A stretch of DNA of 64,000 bases from Candidatus Omnitrophota bacterium (GCA_003154195.1 PMCS01000025.1:16662-80661); one strand, 5' to 3'. Shown: positions 19 to 58,486, numbered from the stretch's first letter. Numbers and translations are program-made. Notes: generated by a model not told the origin, from the sequence alone.

Positions 19-2742
19 TTACCGATTGCGGCCTAATAACTTCAACCCCTCAAACCACCCCAGGCTGGCAATACCGGCGAAAAACGCGATTGCCAGCTCA
101 CCTAAGGAAAGCGGCGCGAAATGAAAAAGACCCCGTAGAAACGGCACATAAATAACCGCCAGCAGCGCGGCCAAGGTACCGGAACAAACCCACCAAAGCG
201 CTAAATTTCGGGAACGTAAAATGTGCCCCAGACTCTGCTTCCATGAAAGATTAGTAATGATCAACAAGATATTAGCAAAGGTTAACGCGGCGAAGCTAAG
301 CGTACGCGCCTCGATTTCGCCCATCCCCCGGCGCAATGCCAGCAAAAATACGATAAAAACTACCGCCAATACGCTTAACCCCTGAAGCAAGCTGAAAATA
401 AGAGTTTTGCGGCTGAACAACGGCTCACTTAAATTGCGCGGCGGCCGATTCATAATATCTTTTTCTTCCGGGACCGATTCAAAAACTGTGGAACACGCCG
501 GGTCAATAATCAACTCTAAAAAAGCAATATGCGCCGGTAACAGCACCAGGGGAAGATTAAATACCACCGGCAAAAACGACATTCCGGCGATAGGGATATG
601 CACGGAAAAAATATAGGCGATGGCTTTTTTTAAATTATCGAAGATGCGCCGGCCCAAACGTATCGCCTGGACAATCGAAGAGAAATCGTCGTTAAGCAAA
701 ACAATCGCCGAAGCTTCGCGTGCCACATCGGTGCCGCGCTCACCCATCGCTACTCCGATATGCGCCGCCTTCAAGGCCGGGGCATCGTTAACGCCGTCGC
801 CGGTCATCGCCACGACTTCGCCGTTGGCCTTAAGCGCGTTGACAATCGCCAACTTCTGCTCCGGCACCACCCGGGCAAAAATATTCGCCTCTTTGATTCT
901 TTCCCGCAAAGCGAGAAAATCCAACGCTTCCATTTCCGGGCCGGTAATATATTTTTCCGGATTACGTAAACCTATCTGCCTTGCTATATGCTGAGCCGTT
1001 CCGGGATAATCACCGGTAATCATAATCACGCGCACACCCGCGTTATAAGCCTCCTGTACCGAATTAGGAACAATCTTGCGTACCGGATCGACCATCCCGA
1101 TAAAACCAATAAATTCAAAATCGAAATCGTGCTGGTTTTTAGGAAGCTCGCCCTTAGCAAAGATTGCCTTAGCTACGCCCAAAACGCGCAACCCTTTATC
1201 CGCCATTAACGTGATTTTATCTCCCAGGGCAACCCTGGCCGCCGCGTCGATGTGGCATAAATCGATAATCGATTCCGGCGCGCCCTTCGCGGCGATGATG
1301 TAATTCTGCTTATCCGGCGATTCCCAGACATGGGAAAGCGCCAACAACTGTTTGGACAAAACATACTCGTGTACAAGTTGCCAGTTATTATGGATATGTT
1401 CCGTGCCCCTGAGGTATGTTTCGCCTACACGATGGATTTCTTTTTCGATGGGATCAAAAGGGTCGCGCTGGCTGGCAAGGATGCTGTATTCCACGATATT
1501 ATGAAATTCTTCCGGTAAATCATCCTGGTGAGTATCTAATTCCCAATACCGGCCGCGGGTAAACCCCGTTAGAGAACTATGTTCTTTTACCTCGTTATAA
1601 AATTCTTTTCTAACAGGGCGCGACGGCGGCATATCCGCCGAAGACGGAAGAACCCCAGGCTGAAAACCATCATCTTTGTCGGCAACTTTCTCTAACGGGG
1701 TAAACAACCCGGACAACTTCATGGAATTCAAGGTGAGAGTGCCGGTTTTATCGGTGCACAATACCGTCGCCGCGCCTAAAGTTTCTACCACGGCGGCGCG
1801 GCGAGTCAATACGCGATGGCGGGACATCCGCCACGCGCCCAGGGTAAGAAAAATAATCAAAACTACGGGAAACTCTTCCGGCAGCATTGCCATACTCAAA
1901 GTCAGCCCCGAAAGTACACCTTGTATCCAATTACCGCGCGTCAATCCGTAGATAACAACAATCAATAAACACAGGATCGCCCCGGCAATACTGAAATTAC
2001 GCACAATACGGCCGGTTTCTTTCTGCAGCAGTGTCCGCTCTTCGGTAATTTTCCCCAGCGTTTTACCGATTTTTCCCATCTCAGTCGCCGCGCCGATTGA
2101 AATGACTTTCGCCGCGCCACGGCCCTGCACGACAAGGGTGCCGGAAAAAACAAACGGCAGGTCATCGCCACCCGGCCGCTTCACCGCCTCCTTGCCGTCC
2201 CATACCGACTTGCGTACCGCTGCCGATTCACCGGTCAACAGCGATTCATCTACCGAAAGATTGGAACAAAATAATACCACCGCGTCAGCGGGAACGCGGT
2301 CTCCTTCTTTAAGGATAATAATATCTTCCCTGACTACTTCCCGGCCCGAAATACGCTTCTGTTCTCCGTCGCGTATCACCAGCGCCCGGGGACTGGATAA
2401 GTTCTTTAAAGCCTGCAAGGCACGCTCGGTTTTATTTTCCTGATAAAAAGTAATACCCACCACTACCACGACAAACGACAGCAGCATCGCCGCGTCGCTT
2501 ACTTCGCCCAGGAAAAAATAAATCGCGCCGCTGCCCAGCAAAAGAAGCAGCATCGGTTCGCTTAAAACATGCCCTAAAATAGCGAATACATTACGCTTCT
2601 TTTGCGATGGTAATTCGTTATAGCCTTCCGTCTCAAAACGACGGGAAACCACTTCTTCCGAAAGCCCCGATATGTTCTTAACGTCAAATTCAACGTTCAT
2701 GCTATCCCTACGGTATTGTTGGTTATCTTCCCTGAACGTCAA
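19..2742 (-). CDS. P-type cation-transporting ATPase (type IIA-like, Ca2+/Mg2+)
   Basis: 907 aa. Carries the DKTGTLT phosphorylation motif, MITGD and TGDGVNDAPAL hinge motifs, and about 10 TM segments. Confidence 0.9.
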   Translation of the reverse strand: MTFREDNQQYRRDSMNVEFDVKNISGLSEEVVSRRFETEGYNELPSQKKRNVFAILGHVLSEPMLLLLLGSGAIYFFLGEVSDAAMLLSFVVVVVGITFYQENKTERALQALKNLSSPRALVIRDGEQKRISGREVVREDIIILKEGDRVPADAVVLFCSNLSVDESLLTGESAAVRKSVWDGKEAVKRPGGDDLPFVFSGTLVVQGRGAAKVISIGAATEMGKIGKTLGKITEERTLLQKETGRIVRNFSIAGAILCLLIVVIYGLTRGNWIQGVLSGLTLSMAMLPEEFPVVLIIFLTLGAWRMSRHRVLTRRAAVVETLGAATVLCTDKTGTLTLNSMKLSGLFTPLEKVADKDDGFQPGVLPSSADMPPSRPVRKEFYNEVKEHSSLTGFTRGRYWELDTHQDDLPEEFHNIVEYSILASQRDPFDPIEKEIHRVGETYLRGTEHIHNNWQLVHEYVLSKQLLALSHVWESPDKQNYIIAAKGAPESIIDLCHIDAAARVALGDKITLMADKGLRVLGVAKAIFAKGELPKNQHDFDFEFIGFIGMVDPVRKIVPNSVQEAYNAGVRVIMITGDYPGTAQHIARQIGLRNPEKYITGPEMEALDFLALRERIKEANIFARVVPEQKLAIVNALKANGEVVAMTGDGVNDAPALKAAHIGVAMGERGTDVAREASAIVLLNDDFSSIVQAIRLGRRIFDNLKKAIAYIFSVHIPIAGMSFLPVVFNLPLVLLPAHIAFLELIIDPACSTVFESVPEEKDIMNRPPRNLSEPLFSRKTLIFSLLQGLSVLAVVFIVFLLALRRGMGEIEARTLSFAALTFANILLIITNLSWKQSLGHILRSRNLALWWVCSGTLAALLAVIYVPFLRGLFHFAPLSLGELAIAFFAGIASLGWFEGLKLLGRNR

Positions 2743-3469
2743 GAATCTTTGTGCGTTTTTTTAAAAACAGTAAAATAAAATATATCGTCAGCGAAACACT
2801 AAAAAAAATAACCCAGGCGGCATCGAGCACGATCTTTCTTACGGTGATAAAATCCGCCGCCGCGTCAAGGAAGAAAAAAAACGCGACGATGGCGATAAAG
2901 GTCGAAAATTCCCGGCGCAAAACTGTTTTTCCGGAGAACGGCAGATCCGGTTTCTGCCAATTCCCGAAACGGGGGAAAAAAATCGGCGTGCCCTGCGCCC
3001 AATTCAAAAAAACATCGCCGAATTTCGCGCGCAGGAATTCCTCCTCGACAAAAATTATTCTTTCGTAATACAAAAGAAAGCCCGCCGTGCTGACAAGGAC
3101 AAACCACCAAACTTGAACGAAGAAAAATATTCCCAGCATGATCACAAAATTTCCCAGGTATAAAGGGTTACGGACAATCGAATACATGCCTTTGGTATTA
3201 AGCGTTTCCGCCACCTGGTCTTTCGTATTCCTGCCGGAAGTACCCCGCGGCGCGTATCCGGCGACAAAACACCGGATTGCAAGGCCGGCGAAAGACACCG
3301 CGACACAAAATATTTCCCACGCGTTATCTACGGCGTCGCCAAATGTGCGCTTCAGATATTCCGAATCTCTTAACGCGATCGCGAAAACAGGCAGGGCCAG
3401 CAACGGGAGATAACTCCTCCAGCGAAAAAGGAACTCACCCTGTTTGCTCATTTCTTCCCGTAAAGCCAT
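2723..3469 (-). CDS. Isoprenylcysteine carboxyl methyltransferase / phospholipid methyltransferase family membrane protein
   Basis: 248 aa polytopic membrane protein. GMYSIVRNPLYLGNF matches the ICMT/PEMT signature GxYxxxRHPxYxG with H replaced by N. Confidence 0.55.
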   Translation of the reverse strand: MALREEMSKQGEFLFRWRSYLPLLALPVFAIALRDSEYLKRTFGDAVDNAWEIFCVAVSFAGLAIRCFVAGYAPRGTSGRNTKDQVAETLNTKGMYSIVRNPLYLGNFVIMLGIFFFVQVWWFVLVSTAGFLLYYERIIFVEEEFLRAKFGDVFLNWAQGTPIFFPRFGNWQKPDLPFSGKTVLRREFSTFIAIVAFFFFLDAAADFITVRKIVLDAAWVIFFSVSLTIYFILLFLKKRTKILDVQGR

Positions 3470-3675
3470 TGACGCACCTCCTTAAAAATCCAGAAAATTA
3501 TTTTCCTTAGATGAATACGAAAGGTATCCCGTGAGAAAAATAAAAGACTTTGTGGTGGAAACAAAAAAATCAATAAAATCTATTTTAACCCAAAAAACGC
3601 GATTTCCAAGAGCATTTTATAAAAAATTCCTCACCGGCATTTTTTGAATTGAAGAGGATAATTATGGCAAGACGA

Positions 3676-6600
3676 TTACGGCAGTTTGCTGTATTGTTTA
3701 AGCGGCGGCTCTTGACCGGAAATGCCTAAGGCGGTTTTAAGATCTTTTACTTCCTCCATCCCCATGATTTCTACCCGAAATCCGCCGAAGTTGTTGAAAT
3801 CAATAGATGGTAGATGATAGATAGCAGACGGTAGATTGGAAACCCCTGAAGACGCATTGATATTTTTAGTTTTTATCTGCTTATCTGACATCTGACTATC
3901 CACAGTTTTCACTTCCAGATTCAGCTTATCCGCTTTTAAATCGATACCGCCAGAGGGGCTATTCGTCGGACTTAAAGCAGAAGACGACGCTACACCATTT
4001 CGCACGGCGACCTTCGATGCTTCAAGATTTTTTTTAACTTTTTCTCTGCCCCAACTCAAATAGTTCATAACCGAACTTTTGGTAAGCTGCAAAATTTTAC
4101 CTATCTCTTTACACTTAAACCCATAAATATAATAAAGAACAAGGGACTCGCGCTCCTTGTCGGGTAATCCGCTCAGGCATCCTTCCAACTGTTCCCTTTG
4201 TATGATATTATGCTCTGTCCCCGGCGCTCGATCGATAACTTGGCGGGCAACGCCGGTCATCTGTTCGTCATCCAACGACAATACTCTATTATTGCGTTTT
4301 TTCCGCGTCCGCATTTCATCGATGCACGTGTAAATCGCTATCCTGCGCAGATACGGAAGGAATCTTCCCTTATCCTGATATGACCCTGAGCGCAGCAATT
4401 TAACTAATTTAGCAAAAATCTCTTGCACTGCGTCACTAGCTGCGTCGCTATCACCATTAAGTTGCTTAACACAGATGTTAAAAATAGCTTGCCAGTAAAG
4501 AGCATACAACTTATTAAAACACTTATCATCCCCGCTCAAAAACCCGGCAATAAGCTGCCCGGCAATCGCTTCTTGAGCATCGAAGCGCCTATACCTATCC
4601 GCCCGGCTTAACGGGCTGGATGTTTTCGGCTCAGCGCCGCCAACCGGAGCTTTGCCGCCTGATTTTTCTTTACTCCCATCTCCTTTCCCGCGTATTGCTT
4701 CTAAACCCGCCTCTGCCCGGTAATGGTCGATGTTTTCGAAAGCTTCGATTGCGGCGGCGCGGACCTGCGGGTGTTCATCATTAAGCGCGTCGCCGATTAC
4801 CCTGTTCACCTCATCAGCAACCGGCGATCGTAAATCATCTGGTTTTACTTTACCCAACGCTTCGATAACGGCAATGCGGACAACCGGGGCAGTGCCGTTG
4901 TCGTAAAATGCTTTTGCCAGGGACGGCAATGCTCTGGGATCGCGCTCTTCGCCGACACGCCACGCGGCAAGGGCGCGCTCTTGAGGGTCTCCCTCATTAT
5001 CCACAAACATCCTGCCGAGGAGTGAATCAAAAGAACCCGGTAATCCTGCGACAAGCTCTTCAAGGGATTGCCGCTTTTCGCCGGCACGACTGGGCTCCCT
5101 GCTTTGTCTTACCTGTTTTTCATCCCCTTCTCCCCTGCCGCCCCTTTTCTCCTTTTCCGAAATACTTTTCATTTCTTCTAATAATTGGCTTACCCGCCCA
5201 GGGCCTTCACTTGTATTTTCCAGTATATCCTTACTTGTTAATAGTCTTGCCCATAGCAAAAGTAAAGAATCAAGAACTTCCGGGCTATGTTCCCCGTCGC
5301 TGGTAAGCGTTACCGTAACCTCATGCTTAAATTCTACAACCAACGAAAGCAATAACCTAATATCTGTAGGTTGGTCACCCACAAGAGTAACGCTTACCCC
5401 ATTATTATTATTATTGGTAATGTGTACCGCAATATCGGAAAATGATTCTTTCATTTGGGAAGAAAATCTAGCCGCCACCGTCGAGGGCCACCCATGAATC
5501 CCCCTCGAATTCATCACCTTAATATCCAGCCAAGCTTCAACCGGGCTGGCGGCCAGCTTTACTCCTTCATACCATTTATCAACATTCGCCTGGCGCCGCG
5601 CTTTTTCTTTATCCCGGTCGATCCTGACGATGGGATAAATCCCTTCTTCTGTGCCATCAGGCCATTTTGCGATAAAGGCATTCTGGTTACCCGCGGGTAA
5701 AACTCCCTGGTAGCCGATGCCCTGCACCGGCTCATCCAGCTTGATATCACGAATATCCGTCCAGGTTCCATCGGGATGGATGACCCCGGCATGAATTTGA
5801 GCCGGCGCCTGCGCCTGAATCGTTACCGCCTCATTTTTAGGGGCCGCAAAATATATGCGAGCGGATTTATCGCTCCAAACCGGTTCCCGGGCCAACGAAG
5901 CCTCAATCGACGACCGGGCGGTCTTCTGGTACAACTTGGGAAAAAGCAAACTTAACGCGCGCAGGTTCTCAAAAATGCTCCAGGCTTGTTTATAGGCGCC
6001 GGTCTTATTGTATTCGGTTTCTAAATTATTATCTCCGCTGAATATCTCGGCAATGCCGTGAAGGTCCCTCAGCTGTTTGGCCAAACCGGAAAAATAACCT
6101 TTTTCCGCCAATAACCGAATTGTTTTTTCCCGGCCGTAAACGCGGATACAAGCCTGTATGCCGATGCCGCTTAAATGCGTCCAGACCAAACCCTGGTGAT
6201 AGGCCTCCTCCTTGTTACCGTCAGTCCGCAGAGGCTTGTATGCCGGATCATCGCGAGAAAGCGTCCGGAACCCATATACGGTAAAAAGTTCATCCATCAT
6301 TTTATCCATTATCCGTTTTGCCTGCTCGCCCTCAACCAATCCCAGAGCAACCGCCCACATCTGGTTGGGCCGAATCATCTCCGCTTCCTTGCTATCGCCG
6401 TCGATCGTATCGTAAAGGCATCCTTTTTTTTCATTCCAGTACTTGCCGAAACTTTCCTCAGCCAGTCTGGCTCGAGCCTCATAATTTTCGCGCTTTGAAC
6501 TATCGCCGGTTCTCCCGTAAATATCCGCCATCAATGACAACGCGTTCTTCCATAAAGCGTTCACCTCACCCGGTTTACCGTAACGCGGAGTGAAAATATG

Positions 6601-9600
6601 GCCGAAACCTTCTACCATCCCATCCATCCAGGTTAAATTGGTATTCTGATTTCCGCCCTTAAGCAATCCATCGGAGTCGACGGTGATATCGATATTCCTC
6701 TCTCCTTTATCGCTGTATACCAAATGGATTCCTTCTCGATGAGCGCGCATGATATCTTCTAATATTTCCAAGATTGTAGCTTTTTTTCTATCGCCGCTAA
6801 TGCCGAAAGCAAGGCTGATCGGCGTTTGTAAAAAAGCGTAGTCGCCGGTCGCCTTTAAATATTCGCCGATTGCCCAGAACATCAACATCGTCGAGTCAAT
6901 AGAACCGGGATTGACGTTTGTTCCGTCGCCGATAAAATTCGGCAATAATCCCTGTTTAACAAATCTTATGTAAGTGCACATAATATTTTTAAACGCCTCG
7001 ACATGCCCTGTAGCGAGCAACCCCGGTAAGCTGAGCATCGTATCCCGCGACCAATTACGCAAATAAGATGTGGGGCCAAAGCTGGGAAAACCGGCAACGA
7101 TTGACCAGCCGATAGCAGGATCATAGCGGTTACTGCCATCCGACAGACGGCTGACACTGAGGGTAGGGTCAAAATAAACCATATTTTCGCCGGCTTCCAT
7201 GAGCCCGGCAAAAACATTCTGCACCCGGCGGACAAACGGCAACGCGCTGTCAAACTCATTCATCCGCTCATAGGGCGGCAATACTTCGATACGGTAATCC
7301 CGGGGCTTGTGGCCATATCGCGCCTGCTCATCATGATCCCACTGCCCGGAACCAAGCCACTTAAAAGTCATCCAGTATTCACTGCCGGTTTCAAGGCCAG
7401 GCACGGCAGCGACGTATTCACCGCTCTGCGCATTGAACCGCGCTTCAATATCCCGCGCCGGTTCGCCGTGTTTTCGAATACGCAGCATAAAAGAATTTTT
7501 ATTTCTTACGACTAAAGTTTTTCCCGAAGGCATGACAAACGTATCGGTTTTATTCTTATCGGAAAATTCCCATACCGCTTCATCGGCGCCAATATTAACC
7601 GGTCCAGAGACGCTTACTTTCTTCCTTCCTCCTTCCTTCTTCACCCCTCGGTCCCCCCCGCCCTTTGACTTGGCCACCGGGCTCGACGAACTGACGCTAT
7701 AATCCGCCGCCGGATCAAGATAAAACGCGTGAACCTGAGCTGGTTCGAGGCTGAAATACAAACCTACATAATCACCGTCAACCTTTACCGTGTCGGTCCC
7801 CGGCGTAAATGTATACCTCGGGCAATCCTTCTGATCAACCGCCCGGCTCAAATCAACCAAGTCAAAAGGTTTCGTTATATCGATATTAAAATGTTTATGA
7901 TTGATCCAAAAATGACCTTGCGCCGGGTAACCGGAAAAATTTTCGACAAAGACCATCGCGCGCTTTCCATCGGGAGAATACCGCTCAACCTGTAACGCCA
8001 CCCCCCTGCCGTGTTCGCCAAGAACTTTTATGTCGGAATTCCTGGGGTTTAACATAAAAGGGAACCTCATGCGCAAATTATTGATTATCGCTAATTCCGG
8101 GACGAGGTCAACGCCGGTATCGCGCGGCGCGTACGCCCAGAGTACTTCTTCACCAGGCGCACGATTAAAATCACGGCCGTCGCCCTGTTCCCAGCCCGGC
8201 CCCGGGCTGTATGCCGCGGAAGTCGTCCCGGCAAACCACATCCCAATCCGGCAGGCAACCGCCGGCGGAACACGATAATCCAATAAGCCGAGGATTTTCG
8301 CCGCATTGCGCCAATCGTGACTGGCCATCATCATCAGATAACGGTCCTGGTCGTTGCGCCGGCCGGTCCCATCCGGCGGCCATTGATGATTGTCTAAAGC
8401 TCGGGGACCGCCTTCGCCGTCGATTAAAATATGCCGGCTTGCAATCGTGCCATCACCGCCCTCCCCCCACTTAGCCCCCCAGTTGGTGATAATCGGCATC
8501 CAGCCCCGCTGCAGCGCGTCGCGATAAAGCTTATGTATCTCCGGCGAACCTAAAAGTTCCGGCATCATCAGCCAATCGTGCTTTTTAAATTCACCGGTAA
8601 GACTATCCCAGTACCCGGGCTTATCCCTGACCTGCCAGAGCGCGTCGCCCCTCATACCGCTAAAACCAAAATATTCCAGATATGCTACGATTTCCCTTCT
8701 CACGTAATCATAATCGGAGTATATCGCTAAAGGATCCCATTTTTTGTCGCCTACCCCGGGATTTGCCCTGCCGTTATCGACCAGTACTCCGGGGTTATGG
8801 ACCGAATCCACGCCCACAATCGAAGGGGCAACCGGATAATCGATCAGCGCCCGGACATTGTGCGCCCGGGCATCATCGACTAAATCCCTGATAAATTTAT
8901 GGAGCCAGTATTGCTCAAATAAAACAAGGTTCATTAATTTCTTATAAATCGGCAGGGCGCGGATCTGTTCGTTTGAACTCTGTAATAAATCAGAAACACG
9001 GTATTGGGGAAATCTTTTTAGAATAAATTTAAGATACCCCGGCCAGCCGTCGCGCAAAATCCTTAAAACCAGCGCGTCAGCCCCTTTATTAACCCGGCCG
9101 TCAGCCAGCGTCCGCATCGGCTTTATAAAATTTTTAGCCAGCCTATCGCGATCCGTTCTTTCCCAATACTCATATTTGGCGACTAAATCATCACCCTCGC
9201 CTTCCACTTCAGCGATATCGTGATAACCGCGATTGATGATCCAGGGACTGATCGACGCGTAAGCCGAATCATCGACAATAAATTCAAAATCACCGAAACT
9301 TCCTGTAGTCTTGTATTGCGCAATCGCCACGTCGACATCACCGGCGTACTTAGCGACATTGGCTTGAGATTTACGCTTATCCCAGTGGGCGGACATGGAA
9401 ACCGGAGATAAAAGTATCGCCGTGGCTTTCGCCTCTGCCGCCGCTTTCACCAAAGCTCGACGGTTGACATGGCCTTCCCAGTTAGCCGCTTTGGGATCAG
9501 CATAACGCGACGGCCACATCTGCAAAATCGAACCAGAAGTAGGGTTCCCGGCCGAATCAAGAAGAAACCAATCCGGAACAGGAAAATCTTTGATAATATC

Positions 9601-12327
9601 TCGCGGATCGCCATATCGAACCGCCGGACTGCCGGAAACAGCTTTCTTTTTCCCGGCGGCTGATGACGCTCGGCCGGCCGGGCTGGCGGCGGCGGAAAGC
9701 GGACTGGAATTGGACTTATTTCTACCCGGCGCAATTTTAATAAAATATGCTTTCGTATAATGCCCCGCCGGAACCTTTACCGTTCCATCTGTGACTTGAC
9801 CCCATTCAGTCTGATAAAATGTCGGCTCCTCACGCATCCCATCGTCGACATGTATAGATTTTATAAAACGGAAATCAAATCCGCTTTCTTTCAATCTAAG
9901 CGCCTCCGGTAATGAATCGAAAAACCCCTCTTGCGCCTCTAATTCCGCACGCACTTCCTCTACAAATTTTCTTTTTTTTCCATTGATAGCAATGATAGCC
10001 TTATAAACCGTTTCCGGATCGGTATTCGTAAATGCTCGATAAACTGCGGCTTCCGTTGACTTATCGCCAATCTTACCGAGAGCGTTACAAGCATCTCTAC
10101 GAATCCTTGGATTATAATCCTCCAAATCTCTGAGATAACGTTTTATCTTTAATTCCTTGGTTAACGATCTCATCTCGTCAAGAGCATCGTAAGCTGCCTT
10201 ACGAACATCACTATTTTTATGCGTTAATTTCTTAGTAAAAATCGGGACAGCGCGCTTGCCAATTTTTGCCAGTTTTCTAGCTGCATCATAATCACTGCCT
10301 ATGCGCTCGCTGAAATAACTTATAGGTAAAAACAATCGCCAGCTAAAATATACTAAAGGGGGAGTGAAAAGCCCTCCCCAAAAAGCACCAGTAATATCTA
10401 ACTCCTGCACAAATTCATTCCACTGGCGTTGCCAAAACGCCTCTGAAGACTCCGACATAATATTACCAAGAGCCTTTAAGTCACGTAAGGGTTCTCCGGC
10501 AAGTATCATTTGCACAGCATGGCCACCTAAATAATGCCCGAGAATCCCGCCACCTATTATTCCCGCAATAATTGATCCCCCAATCACCCACTTTGTCACC
10601 GCCGAACTTGTTACGTTTCCCGTAAGCACCGGACCATCGCACCAACCGTCTAATTTTATCGCCTTTAAATCATAATGAACCATTGCGCCAATTTCGGCGT
10701 CAGTTAACGCAAATCTATTACGCGTAAGAGTTATACTTCTAAATAAAGAGGCGATTACAAGCGAGCCTTTTTGTTTATCATATTCTGCATTCTCTTCCGC
10801 AACATGCTTCTTCCGTCTTCCTTCTACATTCACCAGCCTTTGTCTTTCATCCCAGCGAAACGAAGGCCTCTCGCCCTTCGTTCTTTCCCCTTTCCCCTTC
10901 CATCTTTCCTCTTTCTTGCTCCGTCTCTCACCTATAGTCTGCGGGATGATTGTCCCGAGAGAAGCCTGAGAACTAACCATAGACTCACTTTCCGCATTCA
11001 TTATCCCCAACCGCGCGGTAACCACTGTAGCCTCATTATTTTTTATAGGCGAACTTGAATCCAGCGGGCTGCAGGCAACCGTAGCCTGATAATCAAAAAA
11101 CCGCGCCATACTGGCTCCGCCGCTAAAGTACCGGCGCCGGACCGGTTTCTTTGTGGACCGGTCTAAATCTTTCTTGATGTAATCATAGACGCCTTTCTTG
11201 TAGGCTTCTAAGTACTGGCTGTAGATCTTCTGCTTGATCGCCGGGTCGGAGGTTTCGATACCTTTGGTTTTATTTTTATCGAAGTACCGGCTAAAAACGT
11301 TTAGCCCGTTGGGCCTGTTTAGCCCGTTAGAAGATTTTAACCCTGCAACCGGCTCAACGGACTCAACTGACTCAACGATTTGCCGCAAGCGACGCTTAAA
11401 CCACGCCGCCAGGATCACCGCACTACATACCTGGCGCAGTTGGCTGAAATTCTTGCCGTGGTTGACGTCCTGCTCGATTAAAGGAACAACTACTTCTTTC
11501 ATGACTTGGCTGGTCAATTCGTTTAGCCCGTTGAGTCCGTTTTGCCCGTTGGGCCCGTTAGGTCTGTTAGGAGATTTTAACCCTGCAACCGGCTCAACCG
11601 GCCTAACCGTCTTAACGCTTTTTTCCATAGCAACATAATCAGCTTCCATCATGACTTTAAGCGAAGACTCTCCGATTATGGCTTTATCACTATCTTCATA
11701 GATTTGAGCTTTATTGGGGATGATCCAGATTTTGTTGAAAGTATCGAAGGGTAAATTGTTTGTGCCAAAAAGCTTACTCGCTTGCGCGTAAACTTTTTTC
11801 CAGAAATTCTTTCCGATTTCACTTTCCGGATAAGTAACGCTGGCGGATAGTTGCTTCAAAACGTAGTCCTGAGACAGTAAATCTTTCCCTAAATCAGTTT
11901 GTCCCAAAGAATCGGCAACGATTCTTTGGGACTCGTAGGGGGAAAGGTTTACCCATAATTCATCTTCGGGAATAGTCAAAGCGGCAAGAAAATAGTTTAT
12001 CAGTTTTGTCGATTCGGATTTCAGCTCGTCAGATGCCAGGTTAGAATCGCCGCGATTGATGATAAAGTCAAATTTTAAAGGGTCGCTGGGGTAGAATTTA
12101 ATGCCCAGAAGCTGGGCCGGGGTATATTCCGGGCTGAGCGAAACCAGCGATGCCGGAGCAGGCATGTAGGACAGGGCGGAGCCCGGGACGGAAGCGCGGG
12201 CGTAACCTACCCCCAGGCTTGTCCCCAGAAACGAGACCAGCAAAATCACGATGGCCAACTTGCGATAAATTATTGAATGTGGTTTAGATAGTTTAAGCAG
12301 CATTATAATCCGGCCTGCGCCAGGCAA
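3676..12327 (-). CDS. Giant multidomain protein (2883 aa): signal/TM, Asn-Gly repeats, HEAT repeats, GH13-like barrel, GDE_C amylo-alpha-1,6-glucosidase domain, HEAT repeats, C-terminal ECF sigma-70 domain
   Basis: An 8.65-kb ORF with no stop codon cannot arise by chance at this GC content. The N-terminus has a hydrophobic leader; a TM segment follows (VIGGSIIAGIIGGGILG). PBS-lyase/HEAT-like repeats are present (DVRKAAYDALDEM, NPRIRRDACNALGKIG). GH13-like regions are recognisable: VDSVHN (I), GMRGDALWQ (II), MMMASHDWRN (IV). GDE_C motifs are clear (RNWSRDTMLSLPGL, LTWMDGM). The C-terminus carries sigma-70 region 2 and region 4 (GDDKCFNKLYALYWQAIFNICVK ... LPDKERESLVLYYIYGFKCKEIGKILQLTKSSVMNYL). 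Confidence 0.8.
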   Translation of the reverse strand: MPGAGRIIMLLKLSKPHSIIYRKLAIVILLVSFLGTSLGVGYARASVPGSALSYMPAPASLVSLSPEYTPAQLLGIKFYPSDPLKFDFIINRGDSNLASDELKSESTKLINYFLAALTIPEDELWVNLSPYESQRIVADSLGQTDLGKDLLSQDYVLKQLSASVTYPESEIGKNFWKKVYAQASKLFGTNNLPFDTFNKIWIIPNKAQIYEDSDKAIIGESSLKVMMEADYVAMEKSVKTVRPVEPVAGLKSPNRPNGPNGQNGLNGLNELTSQVMKEVVVPLIEQDVNHGKNFSQLRQVCSAVILAAWFKRRLRQIVESVESVEPVAGLKSSNGLNRPNGLNVFSRYFDKNKTKGIETSDPAIKQKIYSQYLEAYKKGVYDYIKKDLDRSTKKPVRRRYFSGGASMARFFDYQATVACSPLDSSSPIKNNEATVVTARLGIMNAESESMVSSQASLGTIIPQTIGERRSKKEERWKGKGERTKGERPSFRWDERQRLVNVEGRRKKHVAEENAEYDKQKGSLVIASLFRSITLTRNRFALTDAEIGAMVHYDLKAIKLDGWCDGPVLTGNVTSSAVTKWVIGGSIIAGIIGGGILGHYLGGHAVQMILAGEPLRDLKALGNIMSESSEAFWQRQWNEFVQELDITGAFWGGLFTPPLVYFSWRLFLPISYFSERIGSDYDAARKLAKIGKRAVPIFTKKLTHKNSDVRKAAYDALDEMRSLTKELKIKRYLRDLEDYNPRIRRDACNALGKIGDKSTEAAVYRAFTNTDPETVYKAIIAINGKKRKFVEEVRAELEAQEGFFDSLPEALRLKESGFDFRFIKSIHVDDGMREEPTFYQTEWGQVTDGTVKVPAGHYTKAYFIKIAPGRNKSNSSPLSAAASPAGRASSAAGKKKAVSGSPAVRYGDPRDIIKDFPVPDWFLLDSAGNPTSGSILQMWPSRYADPKAANWEGHVNRRALVKAAAEAKATAILLSPVSMSAHWDKRKSQANVAKYAGDVDVAIAQYKTTGSFGDFEFIVDDSAYASISPWIINRGYHDIAEVEGEGDDLVAKYEYWERTDRDRLAKNFIKPMRTLADGRVNKGADALVLRILRDGWPGYLKFILKRFPQYRVSDLLQSSNEQIRALPIYKKLMNLVLFEQYWLHKFIRDLVDDARAHNVRALIDYPVAPSIVGVDSVHNPGVLVDNGRANPGVGDKKWDPLAIYSDYDYVRREIVAYLEYFGFSGMRGDALWQVRDKPGYWDSLTGEFKKHDWLMMPELLGSPEIHKLYRDALQRGWMPIITNWGAKWGEGGDGTIASRHILIDGEGGPRALDNHQWPPDGTGRRNDQDRYLMMMASHDWRNAAKILGLLDYRVPPAVACRIGMWFAGTTSAAYSPGPGWEQGDGRDFNRAPGEEVLWAYAPRDTGVDLVPELAIINNLRMRFPFMLNPRNSDIKVLGEHGRGVALQVERYSPDGKRAMVFVENFSGYPAQGHFWINHKHFNIDITKPFDLVDLSRAVDQKDCPRYTFTPGTDTVKVDGDYVGLYFSLEPAQVHAFYLDPAADYSVSSSSPVAKSKGGGDRGVKKEGGRKKVSVSGPVNIGADEAVWEFSDKNKTDTFVMPSGKTLVVRNKNSFMLRIRKHGEPARDIEARFNAQSGEYVAAVPGLETGSEYWMTFKWLGSGQWDHDEQARYGHKPRDYRIEVLPPYERMNEFDSALPFVRRVQNVFAGLMEAGENMVYFDPTLSVSRLSDGSNRYDPAIGWSIVAGFPSFGPTSYLRNWSRDTMLSLPGLLATGHVEAFKNIMCTYIRFVKQGLLPNFIGDGTNVNPGSIDSTMLMFWAIGEYLKATGDYAFLQTPISLAFGISGDRKKATILEILEDIMRAHREGIHLVYSDKGERNIDITVDSDGLLKGGNQNTNLTWMDGMVEGFGHIFTPRYGKPGEVNALWKNALSLMADIYGRTGDSSKRENYEARARLAEESFGKYWNEKKGCLYDTIDGDSKEAEMIRPNQMWAVALGLVEGEQAKRIMDKMMDELFTVYGFRTLSRDDPAYKPLRTDGNKEEAYHQGLVWTHLSGIGIQACIRVYGREKTIRLLAEKGYFSGLAKQLRDLHGIAEIFSGDNNLETEYNKTGAYKQAWSIFENLRALSLLFPKLYQKTARSSIEASLAREPVWSDKSARIYFAAPKNEAVTIQAQAPAQIHAGVIHPDGTWTDIRDIKLDEPVQGIGYQGVLPAGNQNAFIAKWPDGTEEGIYPIVRIDRDKEKARRQANVDKWYEGVKLAASPVEAWLDIKVMNSRGIHGWPSTVAARFSSQMKESFSDIAVHITNNNNNGVSVTLVGDQPTDIRLLLSLVVEFKHEVTVTLTSDGEHSPEVLDSLLLLWARLLTSKDILENTSEGPGRVSQLLEEMKSISEKEKRGGRGEGDEKQVRQSREPSRAGEKRQSLEELVAGLPGSFDSLLGRMFVDNEGDPQERALAAWRVGEERDPRALPSLAKAFYDNGTAPVVRIAVIEALGKVKPDDLRSPVADEVNRVIGDALNDEHPQVRAAAIEAFENIDHYRAEAGLEAIRGKGDGSKEKSGGKAPVGGAEPKTSSPLSRADRYRRFDAQEAIAGQLIAGFLSGDDKCFNKLYALYWQAIFNICVKQLNGDSDAASDAVQEIFAKLVKLLRSGSYQDKGRFLPYLRRIAIYTCIDEMRTRKKRNNRVLSLDDEQMTGVARQVIDRAPGTEHNIIQREQLEGCLSGLPDKERESLVLYYIYGFKCKEIGKILQLTKSSVMNYLSWGREKVKKNLEASKVAVRNGVASSSALSPTNSPSGGIDLKADKLNLEVKTVDSQMSDKQIKTKNINASSGVSNLPSAIYHLPSIDFNNFGGFRVEIMGMEEVKDLKTALGISGQEPPLKQYSKLP
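11300..11617 (-). repeat. Internal duplicated segment (two ~90-bp copies, 11300-11387 and 11521-11617) inside the giant gene, encoding (N-G-x)n repeats
   Basis: A 9-bp-periodic NNNNCCGTT run is followed by the shared core ttag(a/g)agattttaaccctgcaaccggctcaac(c)gg. It translates to VEPVAGLKS.N..NG.NGLN, which occurs twice. Confidence 0.8.
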
Positions 12328-12410: not shown

Positions 12411-12456
12411 AAATAAAAAAGGCCTGCCCTTTTTATAAAGGGCAGGCCTTTTTTTG
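12411..12456. terminator. Bidirectional rho-independent terminator
   Basis: An A-run, then ggcctgccc / gggcaggcc (a perfect 9-bp stem), then T7. It lies immediately 3' of the minus-strand gene 12512..12874 and upstream of the giant gene. Confidence 0.8.
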
Positions 12457-12970: not shown

Positions 12971-13252
12971 TTATTGTTTCATTTCTGCTTGTTTTGGCTC
13001 TACTTGTTTTTTAGGCTTGCTTGGCGCGGCGCGCTTCTTGCTGTTTTTTGGCGCAACTTTCGCGGCCTTAGCTTTTCCCTTTTTATGCGTCGCGGATGTT
13101 TTTTTGGCCGGCGTTACCGAACCTGCCGTAGCGTTCCCCGCATTATTCATGCCGGGTGTTTCTTCCCCGCTTTTAGCAAAACTCATCCCGCAAATGCTGC
13201 CGGAAAAAACCAATGCGATAAAAAAACATACCATCTTTCTCATAACAATCAC
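12971..13252 (-). CDS. Small secreted lysine-rich protein
   Basis: 93 aa. It has a signal peptide and a Lys/Ala/Pro-rich tail. Its start overlaps the stop of the upstream response regulator by 4 bp. Confidence 0.45.
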   Translation of the reverse strand: MIVMRKMVCFFIALVFSGSICGMSFAKSGEETPGMNNAGNATAGSVTPAKKTSATHKKGKAKAAKVAPKNSKKRAAPSKPKKQVEPKQAEMKQ

Positions 13253-13650
13253 CCCCTTTCCTTAATCGAAGCAATACCGCTACGGCATTCCTCCGATTGC
13301 GTTCCAAAGCTTTTATTGATTTTATCCATCAACTTACTAAAACCATCCGCTTTATCATGATAACCGAAAGCGCCGTCAATAAGGCGTTTCTGGTCTTCTA
13401 CCGAATAAACACTCGTAACGATTACCTTGACCTCCCGGTATACTAACGCGATGATACCAAAAAACTCATCGCCCCGTGCTTGCCCCATATTAATATCAAG
13501 CAAAACCAAATCGATAGGCTGTTCTTTCAATGCCGCGCCGGCCTCTACAGTATTAGCCGCCCCTAAGACCTTAAAACCGTAAGCCTCTAAATGGCGTCCG
13601 TAGATATTTCTTATCTTATCTTCATCGTCAACAATAAGAATTGTCTTCAT
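13249..13650 (-). CDS. Single-domain response regulator (CheY-like receiver)
   Basis: Carries the receiver motifs DDE...D (LVLLDINM) and a conserved T/K region. Confidence 0.8.
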   Translation of the reverse strand: MKTILIVDDEDKIRNIYGRHLEAYGFKVLGAANTVEAGAALKEQPIDLVLLDINMGQARGDEFFGIIALVYREVKVIVTSVYSVEDQKRLIDGAFGYHDKADGFSKLMDKINKSFGTQSEECRSGIASIKERG

Positions 13651-13724
13651 AAAAGATATTTATTATTGCAGAACAATGATAAAAGGACGGTTAAAAAAAG
13701 ATTAAAATTTTCTTATTTTGATGG

Positions 13725-15203
13725 TTAGCACAGCGGCAGGACAATCGTAAAGATACAGCCTTTCTCCGGTTTGTTATTCGCGGTAATATCCCCGTCGTGG
13801 GCAAGAGCGATAGACCGGGCGATGCTTAAGCCCAGGCCGATACCATGGGAATCGTTTTGTTTTTTACCGGGGACGCGGAAAAATTTATCAAAAATTTTAG
13901 TCAGATACTGCTCCGGTATACCCTCCCCGTTGTCGGAAATATTAATATGAATTTTACTGCCATTTACGGCGGCCAAGACATCAATATCGCCGAAGGGAGG
14001 GGTGAATTTAACGGCGTTATCCAGAATATTAAAAAATAACCGGCGCAGATGAACTTTATCGCCGTTGACGATAAAATGCCCCGCGGGAAGACCACAGCTA
14101 AAATTAATTTCCTTGGTCGATGACAGCACGCGAGCGTGTTCGCAGATTTCGGCGAGAAAAACTATAAAATCAAATTGTTCAAATTTAAATATATCCGTCC
14201 GGTAATCAAGCTGGGCCAAAAGAAACAAATCCTGGGTTGTCCTGATAATCTTATTAAGTTCATCGAGGCTTTCCCGTAAAACTCTTTTATATTCATCGGG
14301 CAAACGGTCTCTCTCTAAGGCCAGCTCGATTTCTCCTTTGACGATTGCCAACGGCGTCTTGAGCTCGTGGGCGACATGCGAGCTGAATTCATTAATATGG
14401 CCGAACGCTTTCTGCAAGCGGCTGATCATGGAATTAAAGGAATCGACGAGATATTTCATCTCCGTGTCGATTTGCCCGGCGGGGATACGCACGCCCAATT
14501 CATGATGGGATATATTATTGGCGATACGCGCTACTTCGGCTACGGGTTTTAAAATACTATAGGCAAGAAATTTACCGAGAAAGCTGGTCACGACAACGAT
14601 ACAGACGATACCCGCCAGGATGAATAAAAATAACCGGTTCAAGATGTGCTCGATATGCCCTGCCGGCGAGCCGATCAGGATAATACAACGAAGCGAGTTT
14701 TTGTATAAGAAAGGGCTCTCGATAAAACGAAAATAATTTTTTTTGATTTTAATGGTCTTATAGTTTTTCTTATTGTTGGCGCTGATGAACATTTTCCGCA
14801 GAAAATTACCGATTTCCTGAGGATAATTCGATGAAAATAAAAAAGACCGGCGGCCCACATCAAAAACATTAATATAATCTTCTTTCAGGCTGAGCGCCTC
14901 CACTTCCGCCCTCCAGAGATTATCGATGATTTTGCGGCTCTTACCCTCCAGGCCGACCGCCTCGATAAAAATACCGTTTTTCCGTGAAATAACGAAGGAA
15001 CCGGCGCGCGCCGGGCTGAGTTCTTCGGAAGCGTTTAGAAGAGAGGTGATTTCCGAAACTTTAATCCGCAGCTTTTCGTCAAAATCGGCGTAAAGGATAT
15101 GGCGAATCGATAAAAAAATAATCCCGCCGAAAATATCTAAAATAAAAAAAAGAATAATCGAATATAAAATGCTTGTTTTGAAACGGATGGAGTTGGCGCG
15201 CAT
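13725..15203 (-). CDS. Sensor histidine kinase
   Basis: Two N-terminal TM segments. H-box SHVAHELKTPLAIVKGEIELAL. HATPase N/G boxes (DNAVKFTPPFG, SDNGEGIP, GIGLGLSIA). Confidence 0.85.
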   Translation of the reverse strand: MRANSIRFKTSILYSIILFFILDIFGGIIFLSIRHILYADFDEKLRIKVSEITSLLNASEELSPARAGSFVISRKNGIFIEAVGLEGKSRKIIDNLWRAEVEALSLKEDYINVFDVGRRSFLFSSNYPQEIGNFLRKMFISANNKKNYKTIKIKKNYFRFIESPFLYKNSLRCIILIGSPAGHIEHILNRLFLFILAGIVCIVVVTSFLGKFLAYSILKPVAEVARIANNISHHELGVRIPAGQIDTEMKYLVDSFNSMISRLQKAFGHINEFSSHVAHELKTPLAIVKGEIELALERDRLPDEYKRVLRESLDELNKIIRTTQDLFLLAQLDYRTDIFKFEQFDFIVFLAEICEHARVLSSTKEINFSCGLPAGHFIVNGDKVHLRRLFFNILDNAVKFTPPFGDIDVLAAVNGSKIHINISDNGEGIPEQYLTKIFDKFFRVPGKKQNDSHGIGLGLSIARSIALAHDGDITANNKPEKGCIFTIVLPLC

Positions 15204-15206
15204 AGG

Positions 15207-15875
15207 CTAACCCTTCAACACGTAGCCCGTGCCCCGCAGGGAATGAATCAATTTTTGGGGATAGCCACCGTCGATTTTATTACGTAAATAGTTGATATAG
15301 ACATTGATGATATTAGAAAAACTATCGAAATCGTGGTGCCAGACATGTTCCGAGATCATCGTCCTGGTTACGATCTGGCCGGCGTTGAGCAGCAGATACT
15401 CCAGCAAGGCGTATTCGGTAGCGGTAAGTTTTATTTCTTTACCGGCGCGCACTACTTCATGAGTAAGCTGGTCAAGCTCTAAATCAGCGGCCTTAAGCCT
15501 GGTGGCCTTATCTTGCTGCCGACGCCGCAGGCAGGCGCGCACTCTCGCTAAGAATTCTTTGAAATCAAACGGCTTAGCTAAATAATCGTCGGCGCCGGCG
15601 TCAAGCCCTGACACCCTGTCTTCGATACCGCCCTTAGCGGTAAGCATCAGAACAGGGGTTGAATTTTTTTTAGCGCGCAGCTGGCGGCAGACATCCAGGC
15701 CGTCTTTACCCGGCAAAAGTACATCGAGGATTATCAAATCATACTGGTTGGTCTCCGCCTGGAACAAACCATCAATACCGTCATAAGCGTTATCGACGAT
15801 ATAATGCTGCTCCTTCAACCCGCGTTGGATAAAACTTGCCAACCGCTTTTCGTCTTCAATAACCAGTATCCGCAT
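15207..15875 (-). CDS. OmpR-family response regulator (CusR/CopR-like)
   Basis: A receiver domain plus a winged-helix domain with MISEHVWHHDFD...INVYINYLRNKID, typical of heavy-metal-type regulators. The histidine-kinase gene starts 4 bp downstream. Confidence 0.9.
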   Translation of the reverse strand: MRILVIEDEKRLASFIQRGLKEQHYIVDNAYDGIDGLFQAETNQYDLIILDVLLPGKDGLDVCRQLRAKKNSTPVLMLTAKGGIEDRVSGLDAGADDYLAKPFDFKEFLARVRACLRRRQQDKATRLKAADLELDQLTHEVVRAGKEIKLTATEYALLEYLLLNAGQIVTRTMISEHVWHHDFDSFSNIINVYINYLRNKIDGGYPQKLIHSLRGTGYVLKG

Positions 15876-20467: not shown

Positions 20468-20767
20468 ATGAGTAAAAGAGATATAATTGCTAAATTACGC
20501 ACCGATTTACCTTACTTACGCCATAATTTCGGCGTCAAGCGGATTGCCCTGTTCGGCTCTTACGCAATCGGTAAAGCCACAAAGAAAAGCGATGTTGATT
20601 TAATGGTAGAATTCCAGCGGCCGATCGGCCTTAATTTTATCGACATGGCCGAGCATCTGGAAAAAATATTAGGGGTTAAAATCGATATCTTAACCGCCGC
20701 GGGAATAGAAGGGATAAGAGTTAAAAAAATAGCTCAGAGCATAAAAAGGAGCCTGCTATATGTCTGA
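20468..20767 (+). CDS. mntA: MntA nucleotidyltransferase antitoxin (type VII TA)
   Basis: GSYAIGKATKKSDVDLMV matches the minimal nucleotidyltransferase GSxxxGxxxxxSDxDL motif. Confidence 0.8.
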   Translation: MSKRDIIAKLRTDLPYLRHNFGVKRIALFGSYAIGKATKKSDVDLMVEFQRPIGLNFIDMAEHLEKILGVKIDILTAAGIEGIRVKKIAQSIKRSLLYV

Positions 20768-21101
20768 ACGTTCGGACAAAGAATTGCTCCAAGACATCAA
20801 AGAAGCGGCTTCGCGGATAAAATCATATACTGCCAAGATAAGCTATGAAACATTTTTATCCGACACTAAAACTCAAGACGCGGTAGTGCGCAATTTAGAG
20901 ATTATCGGCGAAGCGTCAAAAAAACTATCGACACAGTTTAAGAAAAAACACCCCGGAATCCCCTGGCAAAAAATTTCCGGCATGCGCGACAGGCTTATTC
21001 ACGATTATTCCGGCGTAAATCTCGACATCGTATGGACAGTGACCGACGAAGAACTGCCTTCCTTATCCGCAAAAATTACCAAAATACTCCAATCTATTTA
21101 A
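20760..21101 (+). CDS. hepT: HepT HEPN-domain toxin
   Basis: DUF86/HepT fold with the Rx4-6HxY motif (RDRLIHDY). It overlaps mntA by 8 bp. Confidence 0.8.
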   Translation: MSERSDKELLQDIKEAASRIKSYTAKISYETFLSDTKTQDAVVRNLEIIGEASKKLSTQFKKKHPGIPWQKISGMRDRLIHDYSGVNLDIVWTVTDEELPSLSAKITKILQSI

Positions 21102-52879: not shown

Positions 52880-52957
52880 TTTTTCGTATTTTCTTACAAC
52901 ATAAAAATTTTAGCCTTTTTTCGCGATACAAGTTTTTAAAAGGGGTAAAATTTTTAT

Positions 52958-53965: not shown

Positions 53966-53972
53966 TCTGTCC
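53808..53972. repeat. Inverted-repeat element, family A copy 3 (165 bp) in the batB-batC spacer
   Basis: gtccacagatttcgcagattgctcggatt is inverted relative to aaatctgtgacaatctgagcaatctgtcc. Confidence 0.75.
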
Positions 53973-54069
53973 CGGTACCCTTTATAACAATATTAAGGTG
54001 CGGGACGCCCCGAACATTAATAGATTATTCAGGGTAACGGGGCTGTGGACAATATTCTTTGTTTTTTAT

Positions 54070-55089: not shown

Positions 55090-55106
55090 ATAGTTCTGTT
55101 ATGCGC

Positions 55107-56099: not shown

Positions 56100-56114
56100 A
56101 GTATGATTTTTTGA

Positions 56115-56244
56115 CCACGAAAATCACGAAATACACGAAAAATTTAACCAATCAGAAAAGTTAAATGCAAAATGTGAAGCAATCTTTAGTTCAAAATCTA
56201 ATAGTAATCTCTTCTCGTTTTCGTGTGTTTCGCATTTTTCGTGG
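56115..56244. repeat. Inverted-repeat element, family B (CCACGAAAATCACGAAATACACGAAAAAT termini)
   Basis: Left arm 56115-56143 and right arm 56214-56244 are inverted. Internal AATCT motifs are present. Confidence 0.7.
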
Positions 56245-56291
56245 TAGAAAATATTTTTGTTTTTTTATCTATTTTTTATAAAAAATGACTC

Positions 56292-57350: not shown

Positions 57351-57390
57351 CTCTCATCCCTCATCCTTCTATTTTTCTCTTCTCTCTCGC

Positions 57391-58269: not shown

Positions 58270-58280
58270 ATTTTTATACG

Positions 58281-58482: not shown

Positions 58483-58486
58483 TGCT

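Follow-up and report, generated by a model that had tools for sequence, protein, structure and literature searches.

A debranching-enzyme domain and an extracytoplasmic function sigma domain as cargo of one long Omnitrophota protein with conserved ends

Bacteria of the phylum Omnitrophota, which are regarded as predators or parasites (PMC10066038), encode giant proteins of at least 10,000 amino acids (aa) in which HEAT repeats scaffold multiple enzymes and which carry signal peptides or transmembrane (TM) helices (West-Roberts et al. 2023, bioRxiv 10.1101/2023.11.21.568195; Nielsen & Lui 2026, bioRxiv 10.64898/2026.06.07.730766). Among these, the Archaeovorins are defined as proteins that reach at least 30,000 aa, contain numerous TM helices and combine glycosyltransferase, methyltransferase, peptidase and NUDIX domains (West-Roberts et al. 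2023). Both studies discuss the topology paradox that such proteins pose. Here we analyze a protein that is much smaller than any of these, encoded in a stretch of 64,000 nucleotides (nt) from Candidatus Omnitrophota bacterium (GCA_003154195.1 PMCS01000025.1:16662-80661), hereafter the window. A single open reading frame (ORF) on the minus strand (window 3676-12327) encodes a predicted product of 2,875 aa, hereafter the query, which combines a GH133 amylo-alpha-1,6-glucosidase domain with a complete extracytoplasmic function (ECF) sigma-70 domain. A preliminary description of the locus had considered this architecture non-standard, and rightly so: to judge from the two studies above, the occurrence of GH133 and a complete ECF sigma domain in one gene has not been described.

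The query resembles the Archaeovorins and the 'multi-enzyme metabolic cluster' proteins in its phylum, in its signal peptide or membrane association with the same topology paradox, in the HEAT spacers between domains of sugar metabolism and other cytoplasmic enzymes, and in that cleavage has been proposed. It differs in scale: the published proteins have a minimum length of 10,000 or 30,000 aa and contain tens to hundreds of TM helices, whereas the query lacks the domains that define Archaeovorins, has no more than a single borderline TM segment and does not belong to that group. Neither West-Roberts et al. 2023 nor Nielsen & Lui 2026 mentions a sigma factor, a debranching enzyme or conserved terminal modules. 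Long multi-enzyme proteins of Omnitrophota are already known; what is of interest here is the sigma domain as cargo and a well-delimited family that, at about 800 to 5,000 aa, is compact compared to the giant proteins.

The query is one paralogue of a very large modular family of long proteins that occurs almost only in metagenome-assembled genomes (MAGs) of Omnitrophota. Each paralogue bears a different string of normally cytoplasmic domains between two conserved ends, the N-module and the C-module. A whole-protein search returned 856 proteins at E<=1e-10. The best 120 of these, the query itself aside, are 1,600-5,000 aa long, with matches that cover 12-19% of the query; those named after a source come from Omnitrophota or Omnitrophica, and a few bear function-only names. 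Alignment of 85 homologues located the common part at the N-terminus, in the form of a hydrophobic leader and a module of ~360 aa with about 37 invariant residues across 86 sequences. In the query, the N-module comprises residues ~46-410 (window 11098-12192; residues are numbered throughout from the first codon of the ORF, and all features of the gene lie on the minus strand) and contains the invariant motifs WVNLSP, DY.LKQ, NK.W, RQ and Y.SGG. A local hidden Markov model (HMM) of this module (alignment A3) matches query residues 17-410 at E 2e-158. At the other end, the family shares a C-terminal block that consists of GGID(L/F)N..L.L, then (I/F).GF.P.I..I and a terminal 'LS...'. This C-module of ~70-90 aa occupies residues 2791-2883 in the query (window 3679-3957, alignment A5), where it reads GGIDL...F.GF.V.I...YSKLP, and the corresponding local HMM matches residues 2791-2884 at E 3.6e-11. 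The query is the sole match to either model in the window. The signature GG[IVL][DNSK] is present within the last 160 aa in 81 of the 85 homologues, compared to about 3% estimated by chance.

The same plan emerged when the N-module alignment was used to scan GTDB, with one genome for each species; this detected at least 580 loci. Among the best 80 loci, 79 are labelled Omnitrophota or Omnitrophica, 'uncultured Planctomycetales' or 'bacterium', and one is labelled Candidatus Elulimicrobium (Patescibacteria group per NCBI). The latter (L012, DYOU01000064.1) contains a 1,617-aa gene with both modules and represents either a mislabelled bin or an extension of the family beyond Omnitrophota. The 80 loci encompass 105 N-module ORFs, and in all 105 the module begins no more than 63 residues from the ORF start. 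When the ORF is complete at its 3' end, it typically terminates in a C-module located at most 44 residues from the stop (70 of 83, with 13 exceptions). In four of the exceptions (L027, L037, L059 and L078, from GTDB representative MAGs), the N-module ORF lacks a C-module and a separate C-module ORF is found in another frame of the same locus. These splits resemble a frameshift or an assembly break, such as the one in a public assembly of the present locus discussed below, so that long genes of this family are probably often mis-called in MAGs. The median length of complete family ORFs in the GTDB loci is 1,453 aa (range 404-3,602). Paralogues are abundant in the family: a single MAG contributes as many as five loci (OFTM38, Ki2-D4_bin-0675), and several 20-kb loci (L074, L063, L026 and others) contain two or three family genes on the same strand.

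Judging from the precomputed Pfam accessions as we read them, the exchanged cargo presumably includes PGK, PGI, phosphoglucomutase, TIM, GAPDH, aldolase and PPDK and, also from carbon metabolism, what we take to be hexokinase, starch synthase and phosphoglycerate mutases. Domains of signalling and nucleic-acid transactions appear to be represented by protein kinases, SNF2/DEAD helicases, response regulators and XRE-type helix-turn-helix domains, and further cargo, on the same reading, by GNAT, radical SAM, HD and acyl-CoA dehydrogenase domains. The query displays each of the three hallmarks of the family, namely the N-module behind a leader, the C-terminal block at the extreme end, and variable cargo in between, here HEAT, GDE_C and sigma. 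Its domain order after the N-module is HEAT repeats, a 630-aa orphan region with GH13-like motifs, a small domain, GH133, an HPr-like domain, a second block of HEAT repeats and the ECF sigma domain. Because the same ends flank arbitrary cytoplasm-type cargo, the co-occurrence of two cargo domains in one protein says little about a functional link between them.

We favor, with a probability of about 0.6, the interpretation that the query is a genuine member of a modular family with conserved ends and shuffled cargo, and that the pairing of a debranching enzyme with a sigma domain is specific to this lineage rather than a conserved sensor-regulator device. Under this interpretation, the conserved ends would be the common handles by which family members are exported, anchored or assembled at the cell envelope, and the cargo would function either tethered or after cleavage at linkers. 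The sigma domain, which is located behind about 2,580 residues, would act as a sigma factor only once cut free, and its association with the debranching enzyme would be a product of cargo shuffling.

A prerequisite of this interpretation is that the ORF at window 3676-12327 is a genuine single gene of an Omnitrophota bacterium, and the evidence indicates that it is. In agreement with the preliminary description, the frame runs uninterrupted for 8,652 nt, or 2,883 codons from TTG at 12327; we place it on the minus strand. The likely start is ATG at 12303 (M9), which agrees with public gene calls and with the N-termini of homologues, one of which (P0002) starts at the equivalent Met. The 2,875-aa coding sequence accordingly spans 3676-12303, with the stop codon at 3676-3678 and the frame open back to the TTG. 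A Shine-Dalgarno-like sequence, AAGGGAGA, lies ahead of the long ORF at 12338-12331. The upstream gene ends in a strong intrinsic-terminator-like hairpin (12415-12454) with an 18-bp stem and a T run, and the long gene, downstream of this hairpin, probably begins a transcription unit of its own. By simple arithmetic, the chance of an ORF of 2,883 sense codons is ~ e^-138. Chance, an alternative genetic code and internal long repeats were each dismissed as causes of the long ORF. The gene density of the window, its one tRNA-Ser and its standard code are those of an ordinary bacterium.

One public assembly of the locus tells a different story. Gene calling in ENA ERZ28653714 (scaffold WOOD18-1...scaffold_29) splits the locus into two genes, with a 2,244-aa product that ends in '...ANVDDV*' and a 600-aa product that contains HEAT repeats and the sigma domain, and both a scaffold gap and the stop fall exactly at the junction. 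The long gene might accordingly be an artefact in which a debranching-enzyme gene and a HEAT-sigma gene were joined by wrong gap closure. We consider this highly improbable, and it is already largely refuted by the following evidence. The stop sits in a 72-nt stretch that is unmatched in the window and followed by 10 N (L001 16727-16808), whereas the remainder of the scaffold alignment is identical to the window; the split and its false stop are thus explained by a non-matching contig end and a 10-N scaffold gap. The 26 nt that bridge this gap in the window (5552-5577) encode residues 2251-2259, KWYEGVKLA, in an inter-domain linker just before 'AASPV'. A JGI contig (Ga0436660_0001754, L002; metagenome 3300038473) is 100% identical to the window over 9,230 nt (window 676-9905), contains no N, crosses the junction, and has the gene called as one product with GDE_C and sigma. 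The same in-frame join recurs in four other records, and the exact 2,875-aa product is on record in NCBI, JGI/IMG, Logan, ENA and GEM, on 4 contigs; given these identical records from different sources, the single ORF was reproduced by several assembly pipelines. The junction contains no repeat that could cause a misjoin, and scans for an internal promoter or terminator there gave results at chance level. Furthermore, with its start at the Met of 'VMNSRGIH', the 600-aa product would, by our reading, lack the first strand of the HPr-like domain. Independent support comes from the family plan, with the N-module first and the C-module last, which only the fused ORF fits. The claim of a gene free of misassembly and in-frame stops thus withstands the comparison, with identity to a gap-free contig across the junction and the ENA stop confined to non-matching sequence. 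The ENA scaffold has four further N gaps in the 26.7 kb examined, where the window is gapless.

The N-terminus begins with a signal-peptide-like leader (residues 9-45, window 12193-12303) that comprises a basic n-region, a hydrophobic core (KD19 maximum 2.13) and, as read from the sequence, an 'ARA|S' signal-peptidase-type site; the family consensus at this point is '...SYA|Q'. In an AlphaFold2 (AF2) model, model residues 11-36 are helical. The leader resembles a cleavable Sec signal, in accord with the hydrophobic leader noted earlier. The N-module that follows has no relative in Pfam, NCBIfam or PDB, and a fold search with its model likewise found none. The (NGx)n repeats of the preliminary description were confirmed as 9-nt tandem repeats (11353-11377 and 11520-11559) within an 84-nt direct repeat, the two copies of which (11298-11381 and 11538-11621) are 82% identical and 240 nt apart. 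The 84-nt repeats encode low-complexity inserts of the form 'VEPVAGLKS..N(G/R)xN' in two loops of the N-module, which correspond to the segments 233-254 and 329-353 of the AF2 model that have a low predicted local distance difference test (pLDDT) score. A near-identical insert peptide, VEPVMPVAGLKSSNGLNRPNS, is present in an otherwise unrelated family member (P0009). Past the N-module, a Gly-rich hydrophobic segment, WVIGGSIIAGIIGGGILGHYLGG (residues 578-600, window 10528-10596), is a possible TM helix at the borderline, with a KD19 maximum of 1.53 over about residues 572-605; the second TM candidate stays below 1.2. The mid-protein TM helix proposed earlier was therefore not confirmed. The majority of family members have no internal segment above KD19 1.6. 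At the opposite end of the protein, the C-module lacks an autonomous fold in AF2 (predicted template modelling score, pTM, 0.23).

The cargo of the query starts with HEAT repeats, and the two HEAT blocks noticed earlier were both recovered by HMM searches, one at residues 694-781 (window 9985-10248; HEAT_2 E 8.5e-13 and HEAT E 1e-5 with the sub-sequence) and the other at residues 2444-2533 (4729-4998). The orphan region between the first block and the small domain (residues ~905-1535, window 7723-9615) is a putative, unproven glucanotransferase-like domain of clan GH-H. It contains the GH13-like motifs GMRGD at 1228, PELLG at 1257 and SHD at 1338, and their spacing of 29 and 81 residues presumably fits the GH13 family. 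Residues ~905-1535 matched nothing in Pfam, NCBIfam or PDB sequences, local jackhmmer searches retrieved no homologue, and no amylase-type HMM, including hDGE_amylase, alpha-amylase and GH77, matched within residues 791-1560. The motifs are colinear with those of another family member, P0091, which itself has a sub-threshold GH77 match (E 5e-4), but the Smith-Waterman z score of the two regions is only 1.4 and not significant. With motifs in place and no HMM or PDB match behind them, the GH13-like barrel of the preliminary description was not confirmed. The small domain that follows (residues ~1580-1700, window 7228-7590) has no Pfam match and is weakly similar to its equivalent in P0091 (BLASTP E 0.004).

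The GH133 assignment is secure. The GDE_C domain (residues 1738-2120, window 5968-7116) matches Pfam at E 1.3e-70, with 238.6 bits against a cutoff of 21, and its TWMD aligns with 'GTWMDKM' of the eukaryotic glycogen debranching enzyme, so that the amylo-1,6-glucosidase domain recognized earlier stands, with its activity predicted from the sequence. The nearest solved relatives are the eukaryotic debranching enzymes 5D06 and 7EIM (E 4e-16), and the archaeal-type enzyme 7VMA is farther (E 5.5e-6). The query resembles eukaryotic AGL/Gdb1 (GH13_25 transferase plus GH133; 5D06, 7EIM, 8ZEQ) not only in this best solved match and the aligned TWMD but also in the order of the parts, with a GH13-like-motif region upstream of GH133; it differs in that the enzyme part is embedded in a longer protein with signal peptide, HEAT repeats and sigma domain. 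Judging by the curated profiles, it is an equivalog of neither the eukaryotic nor the archaeal debranching enzymes: the eukaryote-type model TIGR01531 scores 70.9 bits against a cutoff of 1399.55, over the C-terminal part only, and TIGR01561 scores 138.4 bits against 364.15. P0091 combines GDE_N with GDE_C, and because its GDE_C domain is only 27% identical to that of the query, it is not an orthologue. Downstream of GH133, a sub-threshold HPr-like domain (residues ~2269-2342, window 5302-5523) is suggested by a weak match to TIGR01003 (E 0.0095; 15.9 bits against a cutoff of 47.9), with 'GIHGWPS' at the His15 position, which presumably keeps the His and loses Arg17 of the HPr motif. One family member, P0093, has PF00381 on record.

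The most unusual cargo is the ECF-type sigma domain (residues 2590-2773, window 4009-4560). As stated in the preliminary description, an ECF sigma-70 domain is present, and it is complete, passing three curated thresholds: Sigma70_r2 with 32.0 bits (cutoff 24), Sigma70_r4_2 with 36.9 bits (cutoff 25.7) and TIGR02937 with 83.6 bits (cutoff 42.9; E 1e-23), the latter over residues 2603-2768 and profile positions 2-165 of 165. Like the ECF (group 4) sigmas, it consists of sigma2 and sigma4 without region 1.1 or region 3 and is about 180 aa long, and its closest solved match is Bacillus subtilis SigW (5WUQ, E 1.6e-9). The domain retains 31 of 44 ECF consensus columns, where 150 ECF sigmas retain 33 on average and at least 22, which indicates that it is not decayed but is as conserved as ordinary ECF sigmas. 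It differs from them in several atypical residues (N2666Y, W2659Y, K2754M, S2755N and R2759W) that affect the conserved region-2 Asn and the sigma4 recognition helix, in that no partner anti-sigma factor was found, and in that it is not a free-standing subunit of ~20-25 kDa but residues 2590-2773 of a 2,875-aa protein. No anti-sigma-type Pfam family was detected in the flanking genes or in 20 further ORFs of the window, and the upstream ORFs of 90 aa and 120 aa have no Pfam match on record. A co-encoded anti-sigma factor is common, although not universal, for ECF sigmas.

This sigma domain has no close relative among 1.84 billion representatives, and no orthologue keeps its pairing with the debranching enzyme. 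The evidence on orthologues comes from the whole-protein search and from an exhaustive HMMER comparison of query residues 2560-2883 with these representatives. The scan gave 25,663 matches at E<=0.001 and none at E<=1e-30; the best 150 match the sigma part only, with up to 37% identity and 75.7 bits, and are free-standing ECF sigmas of 179-548 aa, mostly about 180-250 aa. Word-indexed searches, in which the candidate list was saturated, returned nothing or the query itself for the C-terminal 633 aa and for residues 891-2250. An ECF HMM built from the 150 best sigma matches was then applied to the 85 homologues and to the ORFs of at least 300 aa in the 80 loci, and it detected no other ECF sigma among the homologues, the 105 N-module ORFs or the remaining ORFs of that size. 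The pairing of debranching enzyme and sigma is absent from the ~190 other family members sampled. Residues 1061-1174 of another family member, P0007 (2,634 aa), show sub-threshold matches to Sigma70_r3 (22.3 bits) and Sigma70_r4_2 (23.7 bits) beside HATPase_c; this region escapes the ECF HMM and could represent another sigma-like cargo of the family, of a non-ECF type.

The domains of the query, as in some clades of the family, are separated by HEAT spacers and by Ser-Ser-Pro (SSP) linkers. The motif [AGST]SSP[VLIMA] or AASP[VA] occurs at residues 424, 880, 1547, 2259 and 2569, in each case between mapped domains, and a related Ser/Pro stretch at residues 2785-2792 precedes the C-module (together at about window nt 11056, 9688, 7687, 5551, 4621 and 3975), so that the sigma domain is flanked by Ser/Pro linkers on both sides. 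The strict motif is found 0.94 times per protein in 86 family proteins, compared to 0.029 times in shuffled sequences (about 33-fold), and its density in N-module ORFs is about 11 times that in the remaining ORFs of these loci. The motif could mark processing sites or simply act as a linker. Because these linkers flank the sigma domain, its release by proteolysis is a possibility.

Several observations weigh against the role that we assign to the conserved ends. The C-module does not fold on its own and the N-module lacks a structural relative, so that their function as handles is argued from position and conservation rather than from homology. Export is predicted solely from the appearance of the leader, and expression as one polypeptide from assemblies and gene calls. 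Should the segment at 578-600 prove to be a genuine TM helix, the membrane would separate the N-module from the C-module, and joint action of the two ends would be less likely. Only part of the family is rich in the SSP motif, whose density in the GTDB sample is 0.13 per 1,000 aa, and the 80 loci contain no conserved neighbor gene for a protease, a sortase or a secretion component. Moreover, cargo that needs ATP, NAD, S-adenosylmethionine, iron-sulfur clusters or DNA is an ill fit with an extracytoplasmic site behind a signal peptide. Three ways out of this paradox are conceivable: a topology that keeps the cargo inside, which in the query would depend on the borderline segment 578-600; a polyprotein that is processed by the producer; and delivery into a host or prey cell.

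The preliminary description had proposed a direct link from glucan metabolism or sensing to transcription, which would make the query a membrane-anchored glucan enzyme or sensor with a tethered pro-sigma factor, released by regulated proteolysis in response to glucan status. Pro-sigma factors that are activated by proteolysis, pro-sigmaE and pro-sigmaK, are known from Bacillus. The sigma domain of the query, if active, would likewise need release by cleavage, but the known pro-sequences comprise tens of residues, as opposed to about 2,580 in front of the domain and 110 behind it here. The domain is complete and well conserved, Ser/Pro linkers lie on its two sides at residues 2569 and ~2785, a two-component system is located directly upstream of the gene, and the possible TM helix at 578-600, if real, would leave all cargo cytoplasmic behind an exported N-module. 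However, this segment is borderline and most members have none, the neighbors with Pfam matches include neither an anti-sigma factor nor a protease of regulated intramembrane proteolysis, and N2666Y, K2754M, S2755N and R2759W alter the region-2 Asn and the sigma4 recognition helix. Cargo is freely shuffled in the family, the sigma domain is unique among about 190 members and no orthologue keeps the pairing; a dedicated switch from glucan to transcription is therefore not supported, and we regard this reading as unlikely. A little less unlikely, in our assessment, is a polyprotein precursor that is cut at the SSP linkers into separate enzymes and a free ECF sigma in the cytoplasm of the producer, with conserved ends that serve processing or quality control rather than export. 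The SSP-type motif at five inter-domain positions and its strong enrichment in the family, the cytoplasmic cofactors that the cargo types require, and the post-translational cleavage of giant Omnitrophota proteins already proposed by West-Roberts et al. are all consistent with such processing. It is at odds with the resemblance of the N-terminus to a cleavable Sec signal, with the rarity of the SSP motif in many family members, and with the lack of a protease domain in the query and among neighbors with Pfam matches.

The remaining alternative follows the logic of MARTX and polymorphic toxins: the ends would mediate secretion and delivery into a host or prey cell, and the protein would be a carrier of effectors. 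Conserved ends, variable cargo, many paralogues and shuffling are likewise features of these systems, but there is no similarity in sequence or fold and no autoprocessing protease, and in the present family metabolic enzymes take the place of toxins as cargo. A leader of the Sec type, termini that are conserved around hypervariable central cargo, many paralogues in tandem arrays and cargo that requires a cytoplasm would all make sense in a carrier, as would the supposed predatory or parasitic habit of Omnitrophota (PMC10066038), and an 'extracellular effector' is among the published hypotheses for the giant proteins. Set against this, the case is made by analogy only, the analysis revealed neither a translocation domain nor an autoprocessing protease or a secretion-system gene, and glycolytic enzymes would be odd effectors; we consider a carrier of this kind improbable. 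In its most explicit form, ultra-small predatory or parasitic Omnitrophota would export these proteins via Sec, and the present paralogue would debranch the glycogen of the victim while the foreign ECF sigma redirects the RNA polymerase of the victim, a scenario to which we give equally little credence. A milder variant would retain the polyprotein inside the producer and release the sigma factor there at the SSP linkers.

The locus exposes a compact and numerous sub-family with conserved ends, exchanged cargo and several paralogues per genome. With its compact size and sharply delimited ends, this family is more tractable with regard to topology, processing and localisation than proteins of 30,000-150,000 aa. 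The sigma domain is of particular value because a sigma factor has one known job, for which it needs RNA polymerase and DNA, and thus offers a clean test of the destination of the cargo, be it the cytoplasm of the producer after cleavage, the envelope, where the domain would be an inert passenger, or another cell. Delivery to prey, if true, would represent a new kind of effector system, and internal processing, if true, a bacterial polyprotein strategy for core metabolism and regulation.

Directly upstream of the long gene (window 13249-15875, minus strand) are genes for a response regulator, a histidine kinase and an OmpR-type regulator, and downstream are a PEMT-family methyltransferase and a P-type ATPase; no anti-sigma factor or site-1/site-2 protease was detected among the window neighbors with Pfam matches. 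Histidine-kinase clusters, among them PAS/histidine kinases in 11 loci, are the most recurrent neighbors of family genes (11 + 6 of 80 loci), which may reflect only how common such kinases are, and the other recurrent neighbors in the 80 loci (ABC-type ATPase, AAA_14/DUF4143, epimerase) are generic as well. The remainder of the window is unremarkable. It contains a complete MoxR-DUF58-BatA/B-BatD operon (51047-59482, minus strand) composed of an AAA_3 MoxR ATPase, DUF58, an ORF without Pfam match, two BatA/VWA proteins, a TPR protein and BatD. An IS1595-family transposase is located at 44119-45030 (minus strand), and a HepT/nucleotidyltransferase (MNT) toxin-antitoxin pair at about 20468-21101 (mapped from L001 1215-1848). 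A protein with GGDEF and HD domains and TPR and ankyrin proteins are encoded elsewhere in the window.

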